From an uncultured Solirubrobacterales bacterium (GTDB lineage Bacteria; Actinomycetota; Thermoleophilia; Solirubrobacterales; Solirubrobacteraceae), in contig CAWCRO010000022.1 in the NCBI GenBank assembly GCA_963797955.1, positions 66,480-130,479 of the forward strand: a DNA stretch of 64,000 nt, read 5' to 3'. A model generated the notes under the pieces. The model saw only the letters and a list, made by a program, of their open reading frames with translations. It was not told the DNA's origin and searched no databases. Of this stretch, positions 47,743 through 57,619 are shown in pieces. How positions within the stretch are numbered: the stretch's first letter is position 1; each line of letters starts with the position of its first letter. Made by a program: the position numbers and the translations under genes.

Positions 47743-47910
47743 ATGGACTCAAACTCATCTGACGCAGAGGCGCTTGCGCGTTCGGCGGAGGAGCCGTCGG
47801 CGTTCGCGATCCTGTATGACCGTCACCACATCGCGGTCCGTCGGTATGCTGGCCTCGGCGGGTCGGCTCCAGAGGCGGGCGAGGACCTCGCCGCTGAGGT
47901 GTTCACCTGC
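47743..47910 (+). pseudogene. ECF sigma factor remnant (region 2 start only), in frame with the next gene
   Basis: SDAEALARSAEEPSAFAILYDRH...EDLAAEVF; region 4 absent. Confidence 0.7.
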
Positions 47911-47928
47911 ACTTTAAGGAGAACCATC

Positions 47929-48498
47929 ATGGACCTGCTCTATGCCGTGCGCGATCTCGGCGTGGCCGATCCCGCCACCGACAGAGCCGGCGAGGAGAAC
48001 GTGCGAGCGGCGCTTGCCCAAGAGATCGACAAAGCCACCGTCGCCCGGCGGCGGCCCGGCCGGGCGCGGCGGACACGCCCGCGGCTGCTGGCCGGCGCGT
48101 CGGTCGCGGTGGCCGCGTCGGCGACGGCTGTGACGTTGCTGTTGAGCGCGGCGGCGAGCCCGCCGCCCGCGTTTGCCGTGACCCGCCACCATGACGGGTC
48201 GGTGTCGGTCAAGATCAACCGCCCGACGTCGATAGCTGACGTGAACCGCAGGCTCGTCGCGATGGGGATCGAAAGGATCGGTAAGCGGGCGATGGCCGCC
48301 GGTGAGGACCTGTCGTCGATCCCGAGCTGTTCGTCGATCCCTCCGGGGTGGAAGGGCGAGTGGGTCCAGGCGGCCGGGTCGAGGTCGGGGCTGGGCTATT
48401 CGATCTCTGAGAGCGTCGCGCCGGGTACCTGGCTCTTAATCAGGTGCACCGCCGACAACCCGGGCAACACCGGCACGGGCAGCACGGGCGCCGGTTGA
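47929..48498 (+). CDS. Putative single-TM anti-sigma factor
   Basis: RBS AAGGAG; MDLLYAVRDL..., Arg-rich stretch, TM, PAFAVTRHHDGSVSVKI. Confidence 0.65.
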   Translation: MDLLYAVRDLGVADPATDRAGEENVRAALAQEIDKATVARRRPGRARRTRPRLLAGASVAVAASATAVTLLLSAAASPPPAFAVTRHHDGSVSVKINRPTSIADVNRRLVAMGIERIGKRAMAAGEDLSSIPSCSSIPPGWKGEWVQAAGSRSGLGYSISESVAPGTWLLIRCTADNPGNTGTGSTGAG

Positions 48499-51187: not shown

Positions 51188-51201
51188 CGCGTTTCCGCTG
51201 G

Positions 51202-51825
51202 TTATCCGTCGTCGGATGAATACTGGAATGTTGCCTCGTAGGCACAGCGCCCTTGAACGGAGAACCTCAACGGACCGGCGTTGACGTCGATCGAGTCGCT
51301 AACGAGTTCGCGCCCGGCGCGGCCGTGGCCCGGAATCACGCAGGTCACGGCCTCTTGCTCGATTACAGGCTCGCGCACGCGGACCTCGACCTTCCCGCCC
51401 GCTTTGAACCAGCCGCGTCCGGGGGTGTGATCGATCTCGAGCACCAGCGCCTCCACACTCACCAGATTCGCAGCCTTGAAGACCCACGGGAACTGTCTGC
51501 GCGGGGTCCCGCCGAGACGGCCGGTGAAGATGTCGGCCATCGCTTGGCGTTGCCGGGGATCGCCGTCGGCACCGACGAACAGGACGTAGGTCCAGGAAGA
51601 CCCTGGCTCGTCATCGTGGTAGCGACTCACCAGCACGGCCTTCATGCCGGCCAGGTCGGTGTCGCCGGCATGTCCGGCCCGTACGACCCACGAGAGCGCG
51701 CCGAGGCACTCTCCGTACGTCGACCGCCCACCAGGTCTCCCGCCGATCCGCCGGCATGGGCAGATGGCCTCGCAGTTACAAGCCTCGAGGTAGCTACCGG
51801 AGATCTGCCAGGGCACCGTGGCCAA
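51202..51825 (-). CDS. DUF1326 domain protein (start approximate, TTG 51825 or GTG 51816)
   Basis: WQISGSYLEACNCEAICPC, CLGALSWVV. Confidence 0.8.
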   Translation of the reverse strand: MATVPWQISGSYLEACNCEAICPCRRIGGRPGGRSTYGECLGALSWVVRAGHAGDTDLAGMKAVLVSRYHDDEPGSSWTYVLFVGADGDPRQRQAMADIFTGRLGGTPRRQFPWVFKAANLVSVEALVLEIDHTPGRGWFKAGGKVEVRVREPVIEQEAVTCVIPGHGRAGRELVSDSIDVNAGPLRFSVQGRCAYEATFQYSSDDG

Positions 51826-51833
51826 AAGCGTCG

Positions 51834-52685
51834 CTACTGCATCGCGTCCATAGTCTGCATCGCGCCGCCGGAACCGCCTGGGACGACCAGTCCGGGTACG
51901 GCATGAGGCGCCGCGACGACCAAAATAGCGAGCACGAGCAGGACGGCTGCTGTGCCCCAGGTCGCCGCACGACCCCACGGCAGGGTCTTCTCGAGTGTGA
52001 TCAGTGCAGCGACGAACGCCATCCACACCAGACTCATCACCCCGAGAGCAAACAGCGCCGCCATCAGCGCCCAGCAGCAGCCCAAGCACCAGCCGGCATG
52101 CCGTGAACCCATCGCCAACGCCCCCAACCGCCCATCGCGCCACGTTCCCACCAGGAATCCCACTGGACTTCGGCACTTCCCCAAGCACACGTCCTTTAGC
52201 CGTGTTAGCTCGTAGAGCCCGGCGACGGCCAGCACGCCTGCCGCCAACCAGCGCCCGCCGGCAGGCCACGCCAGGACGTCGCCGAACAAGCTCCGGCCCA
52301 GAGCGAACAGGCCGTACGCGACGATGCCCGCGACACCCCACACGAGCAGGTAGCCGCCCGTGAACGCTAGAGCGCGATCAAGCCCACGCTGTCGTGTCAT
52401 CCGCGCGTAAAGCGCGGTCGTCGGCGCCAGCGACGGGAGCATCATCGCGGCCATCATCACCACCCAGACACCCAGGAACCAGCTGAGCGCACCGAGGTCG
52501 GTGCCCGGGCCGGCGTCCATCCCGGCCATCCGATCGGCAGTCGACCACCAGGCCGCGATGGCCAAGACGAGTAACAGAGCGACGAGCCCCAGCCGTGCGC
52601 GCACGGCGACGAACGCCTGGGCAAGCTCGCCTCGTTCGGAGCCGCGGTCTGCGATCGCCGTCGGCGCTTCGAGCTTCCACAACAT
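51834..52685 (-). CDS. DUF2182 putative metal-binding membrane protein
   Basis: WVVMMAAMMLPS, KDVCLGKCRSP, WCLGCCWALM, GVMSLVWM. Confidence 0.88.
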   Translation of the reverse strand: MLWKLEAPTAIADRGSERGELAQAFVAVRARLGLVALLLVLAIAAWWSTADRMAGMDAGPGTDLGALSWFLGVWVVMMAAMMLPSLAPTTALYARMTRQRGLDRALAFTGGYLLVWGVAGIVAYGLFALGRSLFGDVLAWPAGGRWLAAGVLAVAGLYELTRLKDVCLGKCRSPVGFLVGTWRDGRLGALAMGSRHAGWCLGCCWALMAALFALGVMSLVWMAFVAALITLEKTLPWGRAATWGTAAVLLVLAILVVAAPHAVPGLVVPGGSGGAMQTMDAMQ

Positions 52686-52715
52686 ACGCGGCCTCCCAGG
52701 GGCGAAACGTAGATG

Positions 52716-53468
52716 TCAGACGGACCTAGTCTGGTCCGGGTATTCGTCCTTGCGCCAGGCACGAGGCTCCGCGGACTCAGACTTCGCCGTCCGGTCGAGC
52801 AGGAACGAGTGATACGGCGCGACAAATGGATCAGGCGCCATCACAGTGTAGGTGTGGTACACGCGTCCGTTCTCGCGCGCGAACGCGATGTAGCTGGGGC
52901 CCTCGCGCAGGCCGTCCTCGAGCTTGGCTCCGACCTGCCGTCCCCAGTCCTCAAGCCATTCGGGAGGGTCGTCGATCATTGCCTTGACCTCGGGGATCTC
53001 CCCTGCCTGCTCGGGAGTGAGAGCGATACCGAAGTCAAACGGAAACTCGGTCCCATAGGTCGAAACGTAGGGGAACGCCCAACCCATCCGCTCCTTGTAG
53101 GCGACGAGCCGATCGATCGGCGCGCGCGAGAAGCAGATCAGCGTCACATCGCGGTGGTTCAGATGCACTCGGGTGGCGTCAAGCTCATCCCCCAGGTTCG
53201 AACACCCAGGACAGGCGCCGACCTCGTAATCGGGGCCGAACATGATGTTGTACGCCAGGAGCTGCGAGCGACCGTCGAAGAGCTCGGCGAGCGTCCTCTT
53301 CCCATCCTCGGTGTCGAACTGGTAGTCCTTCTCCACCGGTACCCAAGGAAGCTGACGCCGCTGCTCGGTCGCCGCCTGGCCGAGCTTGGCATGCTCGGCC
53401 TCGAGCTTGGCAAGTTCCTCGCGAGCCGCCTGCCATTCCTCGCGGGTTCCAATCTTGTGGTCGGCCAT
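52716..53468 (-). CDS. DUF899 thioredoxin-like protein
   Basis: REEWQAAREEL, RRQLPWV, LAELFDGRSQL, ACPGCS, SRAP, VYHTY. Confidence 0.9.
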   Translation of the reverse strand: MADHKIGTREEWQAAREELAKLEAEHAKLGQAATEQRRQLPWVPVEKDYQFDTEDGKRTLAELFDGRSQLLAYNIMFGPDYEVGACPGCSNLGDELDATRVHLNHRDVTLICFSRAPIDRLVAYKERMGWAFPYVSTYGTEFPFDFGIALTPEQAGEIPEVKAMIDDPPEWLEDWGRQVGAKLEDGLREGPSYIAFARENGRVYHTYTVMAPDPFVAPYHSFLLDRTAKSESAEPRAWRKDEYPDQTRSV

Positions 53469-53635
53469 CGTTAACCTCCTTGGTGTTCGTCACGGCGCCG
53501 CGACCGGCACGAGCGGATCGCAGCCGGCCGCCTATCGACTCTCGCAGCTTAAGACCGGCGCGCTACGCAGAAGTCATCGCTACGTCACGCGCGAGGGCCG
53601 CTGCAGAAGCGACTTGCCTGTGTCAATCGAGCCCC

Positions 53636-54073: not shown

Positions 54074-54279
54074 GCCAGCCTCGTTCCCAACTCTTCTCGT
54101 AGAGAAGACCACCGCTGGGCTGAGAGAGAGGGAGAGGCCCCACGAGGGTGTGCCCCCCAAGCCTAGCGCCCAGCCCCGGTGCGGGCGGCCGCATACGCGC
54201 GGCCGGTCTGCGAGGTTTTGAGCTTGGATGTGTTGCGCTGGTGTCACGGATGGCGTTCTGGCGCAAAGTTAGTGTTGAG

Positions 54280-54846
54280 ATGGCGGTGGGTTTGGAACGA
54301 ACGGATGGTGAGCTTCTTGCGGCGGTCGCTGCGGGGGATGCGGCTGCTTTTGGGGTGTTTTATCGTCGTCATCTCCCCGGCGTGGTGGCCTATCTGGCTC
54401 GCGAGACGGGTGATCGGGAGGCGTCTGCGGATCTCACGGCGGAGGTGTTCGCGGCGGTGTTTCTAGTCGCGCGGAGGTTTCGGGCGCGCGGTGGTGGTTC
54501 GGCGTTTCCTTGGGTGCGCGGGATTGCTCAGAACAAGTTGCGGGAGAGTCGGCGTCGTGGGCGGGTAGAGGATCGGGCGCGTCGCCGTCTGGGGCTAGAG
54601 CCCGAGGTGTTGGACGATGCCGACCTGGCCCGGGTTGACGAGCTGGCCAGCGCGGGCGGCGGTGCGCTTGAGCTCGTGGATCGCCTGCCCGAGCGCCAGC
54701 GAGCCGCGATTCGCTCCCGGGTGCTGGAGGAACGTGGCTATGCCGAGATCGCTCGCGAGCTTCGGTGCAGCGAACTGGTCGTGCGCCAGCAAGTCAGCCG
54801 CGGGCTACGGCGGCTGCGAGACCAACTGACGGAGAATGGACAGTGA
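54280..54846 (+). CDS. ECF RNA polymerase sigma factor
   Basis: AFGVFYRRH, DLTAEVF, WVRGIAQNKL, LPERQRAAI...YAEIAREL...VRQQVSRGLRRLR. Confidence 0.93.
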   Translation: MAVGLERTDGELLAAVAAGDAAAFGVFYRRHLPGVVAYLARETGDREASADLTAEVFAAVFLVARRFRARGGGSAFPWVRGIAQNKLRESRRRGRVEDRARRRLGLEPEVLDDADLARVDELASAGGGALELVDRLPERQRAAIRSRVLEERGYAEIARELRCSELVVRQQVSRGLRRLRDQLTENGQ

Positions 54847-56147
54847 ACGATTACTTCGATCGGATCGAGCAGCAGATCGCACGACGCGTGCAAGCCGGCG
54901 CGCCACCTCGCTCACTGTGGCGCCCGCCGATCAGGGTCCTGGCGCCAGCGCTCAGCCTCATCGTGGTCGTCGCGGTCGCGATCGTGTTTCTCAGCGTCCG
55001 AAAATCCGGTCCGCCGGTTTCGAGTGGCGGCGGAACTGGGGTCGAGCTCGTTTATCAGGCCGAGCCGACGGTCCAGAGTCCAGTGGTGACGAGCGCTTCG
55101 CTGGCGCGAACGATCGAGGTCATGCGTCAGCGAGCTGCCGCGGTCGGCGTGTCCGGCGGATCGTTTCGCGCTCGCGGAAGCGACCAGATCACAGTCCGGC
55201 TGCCGGCTGGCAACAACGTCGCTCGGGCCACGAAGATCCTTGGTGTCCCCGCGCAGTTGGAGTTCTATGACTGGGAGGCCAATGCGCTCACCCCCAGCGG
55301 CCAGACGGTCGCCAGCCAGCTCCGGGGTCAGGACCCAAAGTCGTTGGAGATAAGCCAGGGAGCGGGCCGTGCCGCACCGGGCCAACCTGGCGCGGGAGGC
55401 ATGCGCCTGTACGACGCGGTCAAGCTGGCCTCCCGGCAGCCCGCCGAGGTGAGCCCCGATAACAGTCGCGCCGGTACGCAGTACTTCCTGTTTGCATCGC
55501 CAGGGAGCGCGGCGTGCAACGCTGCGGCGCGGGCTCAGAGCAAGTCACCAGCGCCGGACACGCACTGCCTGCTCTCCGGGCCTGCCGCTAGCCCCCAGCA
55601 GCTCGCCACCGCGCTACCTACGGGCGTCACCGCCGCCCAGGGTCAGGATCTCGCAATCAAGCCCGGGACGGTGGTCCTCCAAGCGGCCAGCCCGAACGCC
55701 AAATCCCAGACCAGCCTCTATGACCCGAACGCCCGGTTCTACGTGCTCAAAGATCATGTCGCGCTGTCTGGCGCGCAGATCACCAGCCCGCGGCAGTCGA
55801 CCGACGCGTCCGGGTTACCGGACGTTGCATTCGGCTTTACCTCCGAGGGCAAGCAGGCCTTCCAAAAGGTCACCCGCGAGGTCGCCCACCGAGGACTGCT
55901 CAGCAGCCCGTCAAACCAGCAGCTCAACCAGCATTTCGCGGTCGCGCTCGACAACCAGCTCCTGACCGTCCCGTCGATCGACTACCGCGCCTACCCCAAC
56001 GGCATACCAGGCAACACCGGCGCGGATATCACCGCGGCTCTCACGATCCAGTCCGCCCGTGACCTGGCGACCCAACTTCGACTCGGCGCTCTCCCGCTGA
56101 ATCTCCGCCTCATCGATGAGCAGCCGCTGAGGACCATCCATCCCTAG
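54843..56147 (+). CDS. Anti-sigma-like single-TM protein with a SecD P1 (periplasmic) domain
   Basis: GTG overlaps the sigma TGA; VNDYFDRIEQQI cytoplasmic helix; one TM; VELVYQA...IEVMRQRAAAVGVS...DQITVRLP; HFAVALDNQLL...ARDLATQLRLGALP; no SecD TM2-6. Confidence 0.8.
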   Translation: MNDYFDRIEQQIARRVQAGAPPRSLWRPPIRVLAPALSLIVVVAVAIVFLSVRKSGPPVSSGGGTGVELVYQAEPTVQSPVVTSASLARTIEVMRQRAAAVGVSGGSFRARGSDQITVRLPAGNNVARATKILGVPAQLEFYDWEANALTPSGQTVASQLRGQDPKSLEISQGAGRAAPGQPGAGGMRLYDAVKLASRQPAEVSPDNSRAGTQYFLFASPGSAACNAAARAQSKSPAPDTHCLLSGPAASPQQLATALPTGVTAAQGQDLAIKPGTVVLQAASPNAKSQTSLYDPNARFYVLKDHVALSGAQITSPRQSTDASGLPDVAFGFTSEGKQAFQKVTREVAHRGLLSSPSNQQLNQHFAVALDNQLLTVPSIDYRAYPNGIPGNTGADITAALTIQSARDLATQLRLGALPLNLRLIDEQPLRTIHP

Positions 56148-56178: not shown

Positions 56179-57174
56179 GGCGTCTGCATGGCGACCTCTG
56201 GGCCGGGGGCGATCCATCTGCTCAACGGGTTGTATGACGCCAAGCTCGACCATCAGCCCGTGGTCGCGATCGTTGGCCAGCAGGCTCGTGCCGGGTTGGG
56301 CGGTAGCTATCAGCAGGAGGTCGATCTGGTCTCGCTGTTCAAGGACGTGGCGCACGAGTACGTGCAGATGGCCTACGAGCCAGCGCAGATACGTCATCTG
56401 GTCGATCGGGCCTGCCGGATCGCTCTCGCTGAGCGGACGGTGACGGCGATCATCGTGCCCAACGATCTGCAGGAGGCTGATGCGGTCCCGACGCCGCCGC
56501 ACAAGCATGGGACCGTGCACTCCGGCCCGGGCTATGCGCCGCCTCGGATCGTGCCCGCCGACGACGAGCTTGATCGTGCCGCCGAGATCCTCAACCAGGG
56601 CGAGCGGGTGGCGATGCTGGTCGGACAGGGTGCCCTGCACGCCGGAGCCGAGGTAGCTGCTGTCGCCGAGCTGCTCGGAGCGGGGGTGGCTAAGGCGCTG
56701 CTGGGAAAGGCGGCGTTGTCCGATGACCTTTCGTATGTCACCGGCTCGATCGGGTTGTTGGGGACCAAGCCCAGCTGGGATCTGATGCAGGATTGCGACA
56801 CGCTGCTGATGGTGGGCTCGAGCTTTCCCTACTCGGAGTTTCTGCCTGAGGAGGGTCAGGCCCGGGGAGTTCAGATCGATATCGACGGAAAGATGTTGGG
56901 CATTCGTTACCCGATGGAGGTCAACCTTGTCGGCGACAGCGCGGAGACGCTGCGAGCGCTGAGTGCACGGCTGGCTCGCAAGCAGGACCGCTCCTGGCGC
57001 GAGCAGATCGAGGCCGGGGTGGAGAGCTGGTGGGAGTTGATGGAACGCCGAGCCCACGAGGCGGCGGATCCGGTCAACCCACAGCTGGTGTTCTGGGAGC
57101 TGTCACGGAGACTGCCCGACGACGCGATCCTGGCTGCGGACTCGGGTTCTTCGGCGAACTGGTATGCCCGCGAT
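56179..57174 (+). pseudogene. Internal fragment of a TPP-dependent pyruvate oxidase/dehydrogenase-like enzyme
   Basis: GVCMATSGPGAIHLLNGLYDAKLDH...LLMVGSSFPY...DSGSSANWYARD; N-terminus and GDG TPP-binding C-terminus both missing. Confidence 0.85.
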
Positions 57175-57244
57175 ACAGGCGGGGCGATCCGGTGCGGCTG
57201 CGGGGCCGCTTGTAGAGTCCGGAGCTGTGCCAAGGCGACGAGTC

Positions 57245-57619
57245 GTGGTCGACCATGTCAGCGTCGGCGTGAGCGATCTTCCACGAAGCCGCGAGTTTTA
57301 TCGGCGTGCGCTGACGCCGCTCGGGTTCGCCGAGATCGGACCGTGGCGAGATGGTGCGCACGAGGTTGCTTTCGGCCTTGAAGAGGCGGATGACTTTGCG
57401 ATCTCGCTTGCGTACCCGGCGAGCGGATCCGTGCATGTTGCGTTCGCTGCCGATCGGCGCGACCAGGTTGACGCGTTCTACGAAGCAGCGATCGCAGCGG
57501 GAGGGCGCGACAATGGAGCCCCAGGCCTGCGACCCGAGTACTCAGACGATTACTACGGCGCGTTCGTGCTCGACCCGGACGGCCACAACATCGAGGCCGT
57601 GCACCACGGGCGGGTGTAG
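57245..57619 (+). CDS. VOC/glyoxalase family protein
   Basis: DHVSVGVSDL, HVAFAA, GGRDNGAPGLRPEY, YGAFVLDPDGHNIEAV. Confidence 0.92.
   Translation: MVDHVSVGVSDLPRSREFYRRALTPLGFAEIGPWRDGAHEVAFGLEEADDFAISLAYPASGSVHVAFAADRRDQVDAFYEAAIAAGGRDNGAPGLRPEYSDDYYGAFVLDPDGHNIEAVHHGRV

Follow-up and report, generated by a model that had tools for sequence, protein, structure and literature searches.

Known systems related to the locus

Pairs of extracytoplasmic function (ECF) sigma factors and anti-sigma factors rank among the major envelope-signalling devices of bacteria, and the signal that they sense is mostly unknown. The subject of this analysis is one such candidate pair, encoded by two overlapping genes at positions 54,280 to 56,147 of a 64,000-nt stretch of DNA (the window) from an uncultured Solirubrobacterales bacterium (GenBank assembly GCA_963797955.1, contig CAWCRO010000022.1, positions 66,480 to 130,479, forward strand). 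The first gene encodes an ECF sigma factor and the second a candidate single-pass anti-sigma factor, here called the partner, whose extracytoplasmic part is a P1 domain of the protein translocase component SecD.

By analogy, the nearest functional relative would be envelope-stress signalling of the sigma-E/RseA type. In the Escherichia coli system (with DegS and RseP), an ECF sigma factor homologous to the present one (1or7) is likewise co-transcribed with a single-pass membrane protein whose N-terminus lies inside the cell (N-in). The proposed logic is also alike, with extracytoplasmic folding or export status leading to sigma release; in E. coli the sigma is freed when unfolded outer-membrane proteins build up. 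However, RseA has a four-helix anti-sigma domain (ASD) of ~90 aa and a non-SecD periplasmic domain, and sensing proceeds through the DegS protease and RseB, whereas the present locus has no linked protease gene and its ectodomain is itself a substrate-binding domain of the translocase. The SigK/RskA pair of Mycobacterium tuberculosis and other actinobacterial anti-sigma factors likewise combine an ECF sigma with a single-transmembrane (TM) partner encoded at the +1 position, but the present partner has neither RskA_N nor zf-HC2, and its ectodomain is SecD P1 rather than RskA_C. Class I ASDs consist of about four helices, and those of class II, of the CnrY (CnrH) and NepR type, are very short, with about two helices in 45–60 residues. 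The partner resembles class II in its very short cytoplasmic segment and in lacking both a zinc motif and a Pfam ASD match, and differs in that its N-terminal type (class A, below) has one helix of ~15 residues within ~30 residues. CnrY senses metals through CnrX, not through a large ectodomain of its own.

The ectodomain is homologous to P1 of SecDF, the proton-driven motor represented by the Thermus thermophilus (3AQP/3AQO) and Deinococcus radiodurans (5XAN) structures, and the TM1-plus-P1 topology is shared as well. In contrast to SecDF, the partner lacks TM2–12, the P4 domain and the proton pathway, has a different N-terminus and TM1, is not encoded at a ruvCAB-secDF locus and shows a relaxed P1 base. 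It cannot act as a motor, because the proton-conducting TM domain (TM2–12) is lacking. The role proposed here, coupling of gene expression to Sec export, is also that of VemP (Vibrio secD2F2), SecM, MifM and CssRS. In the first three, translation of a nascent monitor peptide is arrested, and CssRS uses a histidine kinase; in the present case, the proposed receptor of an ECF sigma switch is a duplicate of the domain with which the translocase itself binds substrate. The SecDF P1 head binds translocon-engaged substrate and neighbours PpiD, and SecDF, with the region of its P1 head, takes part in releasing the VemP arrest (PMC7793623).

A preliminary description of this DNA, made from the letters alone, knew of no comparable system, and no literature on SecD-like anti-sigma ectodomains was found among 8.3 million papers; the main text of the ECF re-classification (PMC7826278) is silent on SecD, and a passing mention in its supplementary groups is possible. 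Judged from the sequence, what would be new is that a known kind of ECF sigma/anti-sigma pair has SecD P1 as its sensor domain, together with a cytoplasmic module of unusually small size.

The sigma factor and its overlapping partner

The features of the pair, in window coordinates, are listed below.

54280..54846, + strand: ECF (group IV) sigma-70 factor, 188 aa (Pfam and NCBIfam)
54358-54558 and 54667-54816, + strand: coding parts for sigma2 and sigma4, respectively, within the sigma gene
54843..56147, + strand: candidate anti-sigma factor, 434 aa, with its GTG start within the sigma stop (GTGA)
54843..54935, + strand: cytoplasmic N-terminal segment, residues 1-31, an amphipathic helix and an Arg/Pro-rich linker
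54936..54998, + strand: single TM helix, residues 32-52 (VLAPALSLIVVVAVAIVFLSV), from a hydropathy scan and AlphaFold2 (AF2)
55038..56126, + strand: extracytoplasmic SecD P1 domain, residues 66-428 (Pfam, NCBIfam, profile and Foldseek)
55104-55271, 55272-55727 and 55728-56096, + strand: ectodomain subparts SecD_1st, insertion and P1 head, followed by the last base strand

Residues 27–93 of the first protein matched Sigma70_r2 (PF04542) and residues 130–179 matched Sigma70_r4_2 (PF08281); these two families and Sigma70_r4 were each above the Pfam cut-off. The NCBIfam model TIGR02937 (sigma70-ECF) scored 67.2 bits against a cut-off of 42.9 (E 1.2e-18). Only sigma2 and sigma4 were present, with neither sigma1.1 nor sigma3, as is the case for ECF sigma factors, for which ~170–200 aa are expected. 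NCBIfam subgroup and equivalog models were all far under their cut-offs, the best being SigE-fam_strep at 60.6 versus 141.6. The PDB matches were exclusively ECF sigma factors, and the best of them (2q1z RpoE, 4nqw SigK and 1or7 sigma-E), the closest solved relatives, were all crystallised with their anti-sigma factors. The ATG at 54280 is kept as the start among orthologues, while gene callers placed it in a longer open reading frame (ORF) from GTG 54148 that would overlap a promoter-like motif (below). The ATG was favoured because this motif sits just upstream of it.

The preliminary description proved accurate in its sequence-level statements and coordinates. As it had reported, the GTG start of the partner at 54843 lies inside the sigma stop codon. 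Putative anti-sigma factors have been recognised operationally by the +1 position and a TM helix, and most of those so recognised match no known ASD family (PMC7826278). The partner is encoded at +1, translationally coupled to the sigma gene, and has a TM helix. The layout of a short cytoplasmic helix and one TM that had been noted earlier was borne out: the N-terminus is a short Arg-rich segment with a helix (VNDYFDRIEQQIARRV), in which residues 5–17 (DYFDRIEQQIARR) form an amphipathic helix, predicted by AF2 at a low predicted local distance difference test (pLDDT) score and followed by an Arg/Pro-rich linker. The hydropathy scan gave one hydrophobic segment, at residues 32–52, and AF2 placed the helix at 33–51. 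The topology is therefore that of an anti-sigma factor, with a single N-in TM between a cytoplasmic segment and an extracytoplasmic domain and an Arg-rich stretch preceding the TM. The sequence of this TM is unlike TM1 of SecDF, which reads M[ST]DRQRNGFILLLV... Residues 1–31 are proposed as the sigma-binding module.

The partner ectodomain is a SecDF P1 domain

Pfam placed SecD_1st (PF21760) at residues 88–143 of the partner (1.4e-9) and SecDF_P1_head (PF22599) at residues 296–418 (3e-19). Between them lies a lineage-specific insertion of ~150 residues carrying two invariant Cys. The NCBIfam model TIGR01129 (secD) aligned residues 78–427 with model positions 29–236 of 397, at 98 bits against a cut-off of 244. 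The family profile matched the crystallised P1 domain of T. thermophilus SecDF (PDB 3aqo_A; 1.3e-12). For the AF2 model of the partner (mean pLDDT 71.8), the top Foldseek matches were 5yhf, 3aqo, 5xan and 3aqp, each with a probability of 1.00, and significant E-values were returned for SecDF structures only. The window ectodomain was 56–61% identical to P1 of true SecDF from the same order; for other family members this identity reached up to 80%. Both sequence and fold identify the ectodomain as a near-complete SecDF P1 domain.

True SecDF proteins of the lineage, from Solirubrobacterales metagenome-assembled genomes (MAGs), are 1000–1130 aa long with ~12 TM helices and start M[ST]DRQRNGF... 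They aligned to partner residues 66–426 and then ran on into the ~12 TM helices, whereas the partner ended 8 residues after the alignment. The earlier statement that the SecD periplasmic region is complete and stops where TM2 would begin therefore holds, with P1 spanning residues 66–428. The partner has in common with SecD a TM1 followed by a periplasmic P1 of base and head; it gave no match to PF02355 (SecD_SecF_C) and has one TM, with neither TM2–6 nor a SecF half. The canonical secDF locus of the lineage consists of ruvCAB, a small protein and secDF (seen in loci L108 and L114), and the window locus differs from it. That a separate full secD exists was borne out in part: canonical secDF genes after ruvCAB were seen only on contigs other than that of the window, and no second SecD-like sequence was found in the 64-kb window.

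Recurrence of the pair

Look-ups of genomes, metagenomes and proteins yielded 114 loci, which were classified with hidden Markov models built for the analysis. A protein search with the partner returned 788 relatives. Among the best 120, ~102 were SecD-P1-only proteins of 394–495 aa, and 12 had the N-terminus of true SecDF. Database names of the relatives were 'hypothetical protein' or, in JGI, the misleading 'SecD/SecF fusion protein'. The expectation that P1-only proteins next to ECF sigma genes would recur was borne out, with an ECF sigma gene directly upstream in 28 of the 32 complete P1-only loci; the 28 derive from independent ENA, NCBI and JGI assemblies. None of 72 SecDF-like genes had an adjacent sigma gene, and one sigma gene lay 0.76 kb upstream. 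The spacing from sigma to partner in the 28 paired loci was -4 nt in 22, -8 in three, -11 in one and +2 in two, so that stop and start overlapped in 26. The four P1-only genes lacking a sigma were not of the sensor type, three having a SecDF N-terminus and one a lipoprotein signal. The genes flanking the pair varied between loci; since the genes beyond it are not conserved, the conserved unit is the two-gene pair itself. The pair is present in many Solirubrobacterales genomes from soil and, as far as seen, is limited to uncultured members of this order.

Two kinds of P1-only gene that stand apart from the pair were also observed. In L108 (5001-6233), and also in L033, L076 and L096, P1-only genes of ~405–427 aa with the SecDF N-terminus M[ST]DRQRNGF... 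occupied the canonical ruvCAB-x-secD position and ended after P1, with no TM2–12 downstream. A MarR/ABC transporter followed the gene in L108, and the L096 protein had a class-C-like C-terminal tail. Possible explanations for these genes are truncation of secDF, an intermediate stage in evolution and chimeric assembly. In L041 (392-1619) and L109 (116-1300, protein P0035), a stand-alone SecD P1 had a lipoprotein-type signal (…LAVTGC…) in place of the N-helix and TM, and the little upstream sequence present showed no sigma.

Cytoplasmic N-termini and modularity

The cytoplasmic N-termini of the family fell into at least nine mutually unalignable classes of 30–80 aa, all carried on a similar TM and the same ectodomain. 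The window partner belongs to class A (SDYFDRIERQ...), in which Y4, F5, R7, E9 and Q11 of the helix were invariant in 30 sequences. In the TM, V48 and F49 were nearly invariant across all N-terminal classes, and this common helix suggests a common cassette. The identity of the adjacent sigma factors was 81% within an N-terminal class versus 35% between classes, compared with 61% and 54%, respectively, for the ectodomains. No PDB relatives of the N-terminal segments were found. Some of the N-termini had NCBIfam matches below threshold, namely to the CU044_5270 family (E 0.0009) and, for class G, to NF052375 'antisigma' (E 0.0066).

A profile of the class-A N-terminus and TM matched 78 proteins out of 1.84 billion representative proteins. 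The class-A helix, DY[FY]DR.E.QL, was also present on proteins without P1, namely P0165 (242 aa), P0192 (352 aa) and P0193 (406 aa). None of these three had a Pfam domain above cut-off, and weak RskA_C matches (E 0.006) among such relatives were below cut-off. In all three, the gene overlapped an upstream ECF sigma gene, and the sigma factors encoded there shared 50–67% identity with the window sigma and 25–41% with those of the other SecD-P1 classes. The sigma type and the N-helix travel together and the ectodomain is exchangeable, as would be expected if the helix is the sigma-binding element.

Seven further proteins with the class-A helix (P0127, P0131, P0132, P0135, P0138, P0140 and P0154), 327–365 aa in length, spanned the whole P1 profile and are variants that lack part of the lineage-specific insertion. 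The class C proteins (e.g. P0034 and P0053) had a conserved C-terminal Cys tail, LKLICxGxPxTTxCxxPR, which was absent from the other classes.

A promoter-like motif upstream of the sigma gene

54243..54268, + strand: bipartite promoter-like motif GTCAC-N14-CGCAAAG, conserved 12 nt before the sigma ATG

The motif GTCAC-N14/15-CGCAAAG was found in register, ~12 nt before the sigma ATG, in all six non-redundant class-A loci with upstream sequence, and among 107 loci scanned it was confined to class A. The motif occurred once in the 64-kb window against 0.09 expected. It is probably the autoregulated ECF promoter of the sigma operon, with a very short leader, and the two-gene module as a whole is probably autoregulated. 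A scan of the operon for terminators and sigma-70 promoters gave nothing informative.

Constraint on the ectodomain and probable exchange with secDF

Conservation was compared between 25 ectodomains of the putative sensor type (hereafter sensors) and 49 SecDF P1 domains. At least 90% conservation in both sets was seen at 77 positions, including the FYDWE and HFAVALD motifs and the Cys pair C225 and C242. None of the positions conserved in the sensors was peculiar to them. Conserved positions peculiar to SecDF clustered at residues 90–136 and 398–425, and over residues 96–125 the mean column conservation was 0.46 in the sensors versus 0.79 in SecDF; the P1 head and the insertion were equally conserved in the two sets. 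By homology to 3AQP, we take residues 90–136 and 398–425 to form the P1 base, which presumably packs on SecF and the membrane domain. Relaxation of the base fits a loss of contact with SecF and the TM domain, with head function probably retained. The Cys pair was invariant in all sensors and in the P1 domains of lineage SecDF.

In neighbour-joining (NJ) trees, the only kind computed (~360 columns), none of 100 bootstraps recovered the P1-only ectodomains as a single clade; they interleaved with P1 domains of resident SecDF, and the ectodomain clades did not track the N-terminal classes. The class-B ectodomains of L024 and L061 grouped with the SecDF of L048 in 100 of 100 bootstraps, at 79–80% identity, compared with 62% or less to sensors of other classes. 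Because the sensors are non-monophyletic and L024 and L061 cluster with the L048 SecDF, the trees indicate that sensors and resident secDF have probably exchanged P1 sequence repeatedly, through capture or gene conversion. The preliminary description had spoken of a translocase domain repurposed as a receptor. The P1 identity of the domain stands by sequence and fold; a single ancient capture as the whole story was rejected on the same tree results, in favour of repeated exchange with secDF.

Two full-length secDF genes (1043 and 1054 aa) were present on different contigs of one MAG, MFD09603.bin.1.68 (L006 and L010). This could be a genuine duplication or strain mixing, and bears on the origin of the P1 copies.

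Integrity of the locus

The gene order in the window is MpsC-like, sigma, P1-only and glyoxalase. The earlier warning of a rearrangement junction close downstream was well founded: compared with contigs that are 98–99% identical, the window carries an insertion of exactly 1000 bp at 56181-57180, beginning 33 nt past the partner stop codon. The inserted segment comes from within a gene for a thiamine pyrophosphate-dependent enzyme (PRK08273 positions 72–400) and stays in frame over 333 codons without a stop. Terminal repeats are lacking, the segment occurs only once in the window, and both genes of the pair are untouched. Its appearance suggests either an artefact of assembly or construction or an illegitimate insertion. 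Four contigs from independent ENA assemblies, 98–99% identical to the window region, carry the intact pair with the same stop codon. The 434-aa orthologue on four independent contigs was 97% identical to the partner, and in the four near-identical contigs the glyoxalase gene begins 97 nt after the partner stop.

The GC content of the inserted segment is 65.5%, versus 67.2% for the window, and its presence creates a spurious ORF of 397 aa at 56188-57381.

Proposed function and alternative explanations

The locus is read here as a self-contained pair of an ECF sigma factor and a membrane-anchored anti-sigma factor with a recruited SecDF P1 domain as proposed sensor of exported polypeptides or of translocon activity. 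As a whole, this reading is reasonably probable. That the partner is the cognate anti-sigma factor or a negative regulator is quite likely and, given such a role, an export-related signal is plausible, if slightly short of probable. In the proposed mechanism, the N-terminal helix of ~15 residues would hold the sigma inactive at the membrane, and the P1 copy, its head above all, would contact non-native polypeptides leaving the Sec translocon, or translocon-associated machinery. The ectodomain would thereby report export load or a build-up of unfolded exported protein. Occupancy of P1 may lead to sigma release through a conformational change or regulated proteolysis of the anti-sigma, and the freed sigma would transcribe its own operon and a further regulon.

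Several points weigh against this proposal. The many paralogous classes could mean that the P1 fold is a diversifiable ligand-binding scaffold and not one secretion-stress sensor. No ASD family (class I ASD/zf-HC2, RskA_N, FecR and others) was above the Pfam or NCBIfam cut-off in the full protein or in the N-termini, the AF2 pLDDT of the partner N-terminus was only ~45 and, to our knowledge, a single helix of ~15 residues would undercut every characterised ASD in length. No protease or other accessory gene was conserved near the pair in the loci compared, and no second copy of the promoter-like motif was present within the 64-kb window to indicate a regulon. Every family member comes from a MAG or metagenome, with no organism in hand.

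The same observations can be explained in other ways. The partner could be the cognate anti-sigma factor with P1 serving as a scaffold for signals unrelated to export (small ligands, cell-wall fragments or specific proteins), or with P1 docked constitutively on SecYEG/SecDF/YidC and reporting the state of the translocon. The sharing of one ectodomain type by at least nine classes with distinct sigma factors resembles a diversified sensor family, the ectodomains are only ~61% identical within a class, and the large insertion with its invariant Cys pair could be the true ligand site. The tracking of a particular resident SecDF P1 by some ectodomains (up to 80% identity, 100 of 100 bootstraps) would suit a requirement to match some partner of SecDF. 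However, nothing is conserved in the sensors alone, every conserved position being conserved in SecDF P1 as well, which speaks for retention of the ancestral head function and against a new binding site specific to the sensors; this explanation is considered unlikely. It is very unlikely that the P1-only protein is instead a co-transcribed effector, such as a membrane-anchored extracytoplasmic holdase made under envelope stress, with the sigma controlled otherwise. Such a role would suit a class-A cytoplasmic part of only ~30 aa with no ASD detected and an ectodomain that keeps the conserved positions of a chaperone-like translocase domain, and stand-alone P1 proteins without a sigma (of the lipoprotein and SecDF-N-terminus types) do exist. 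Yet it gives no reason for N-terminal classes to co-vary with the sigma under a shared ectodomain and leaves unexplained why the same N-helix and sigma type occur on unrelated ectodomains; moreover, the stop/start overlap that prevails among the paired loci is the typical sigma/anti-sigma arrangement, and no alternative regulator gene is conserved nearby.

That the gene is a truncated secD pseudogene left by the nearby rearrangement, or an assembly artefact, has next to no chance of being correct, although the junction 33 nt downstream and the JGI name given to relatives would both fit it. The near-identical contigs without the insertion keep the same gene and stop codon, and independent assemblies supply more than 100 P1-only relatives of 420–495 aa. 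The preliminary description had named homologues continuing into SecD TM2–6 as a refutation; the homologues do not run on in this way and instead form a P1-only family. The N-terminus and TM differ from those of SecDF, and the canonical secDF lies elsewhere, after ruvCAB. The intact contigs, the P1-only family and the distinct N-terminus and TM together refute this candidate.

For the preferred reading, an export-sensing anti-sigma factor, a concrete and testable hypothesis on the signal can be framed because P1 in its parent protein binds translocating polypeptides. If true, it would constitute a new mode of export monitoring, distinct from SecM/VemP/MifM, CssRS and DegS, and would help the understanding of secretion stress in Actinomycetota. 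A bolder version is somewhat unlikely in its entirety: the ectodomain would be a functional decoy of the translocase's substrate-binding head, sampling the polypeptides of SecDF or sitting on the Sec holotranslocon, and thus the first transcription-factor-based Sec monitor built from a piece of the export machine. Repeated recombination or gene conversion with secDF would keep sensor and motor matched, and the ~15-residue helix would be the smallest known anti-sigma module, and a swappable one. The family offers a clean natural case of anti-sigma domain shuffling: the N-terminal module is specific to the sigma, whereas the ectodomains joined to it are interchangeable, and for one of them a housekeeping gene has apparently served as a repeated source of renewal. 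Builders of orthogonal sigma/anti-sigma switches could find the minimal N-helix useful.

Neighbouring genes

Upstream of the sigma gene and divergent from it lies the MpsC-like gene (PF10057; 53636-54247, - strand), and beyond it, at 51200-53470, are genes for DUF899, PpoB2 and DUF1326 proteins. This MpsC-like/DUF899/PpoB2/DUF1326 neighbourhood was kept only in contigs 97–98% identical to the window and not in remoter loci with the pair. Further upstream, an ORF at 47743-48498 (+ strand) encodes ~60 aa of ECF sigma region 2 that lead straight into an anti-sigma-like N-terminus (MDLLYAVRDLGVADP...), behind which come a TM helix and an ectodomain. To judge by its sequence, this ORF is apparently what is left of a second sigma/anti-sigma pair after deletion or fusion of most of the sigma gene.

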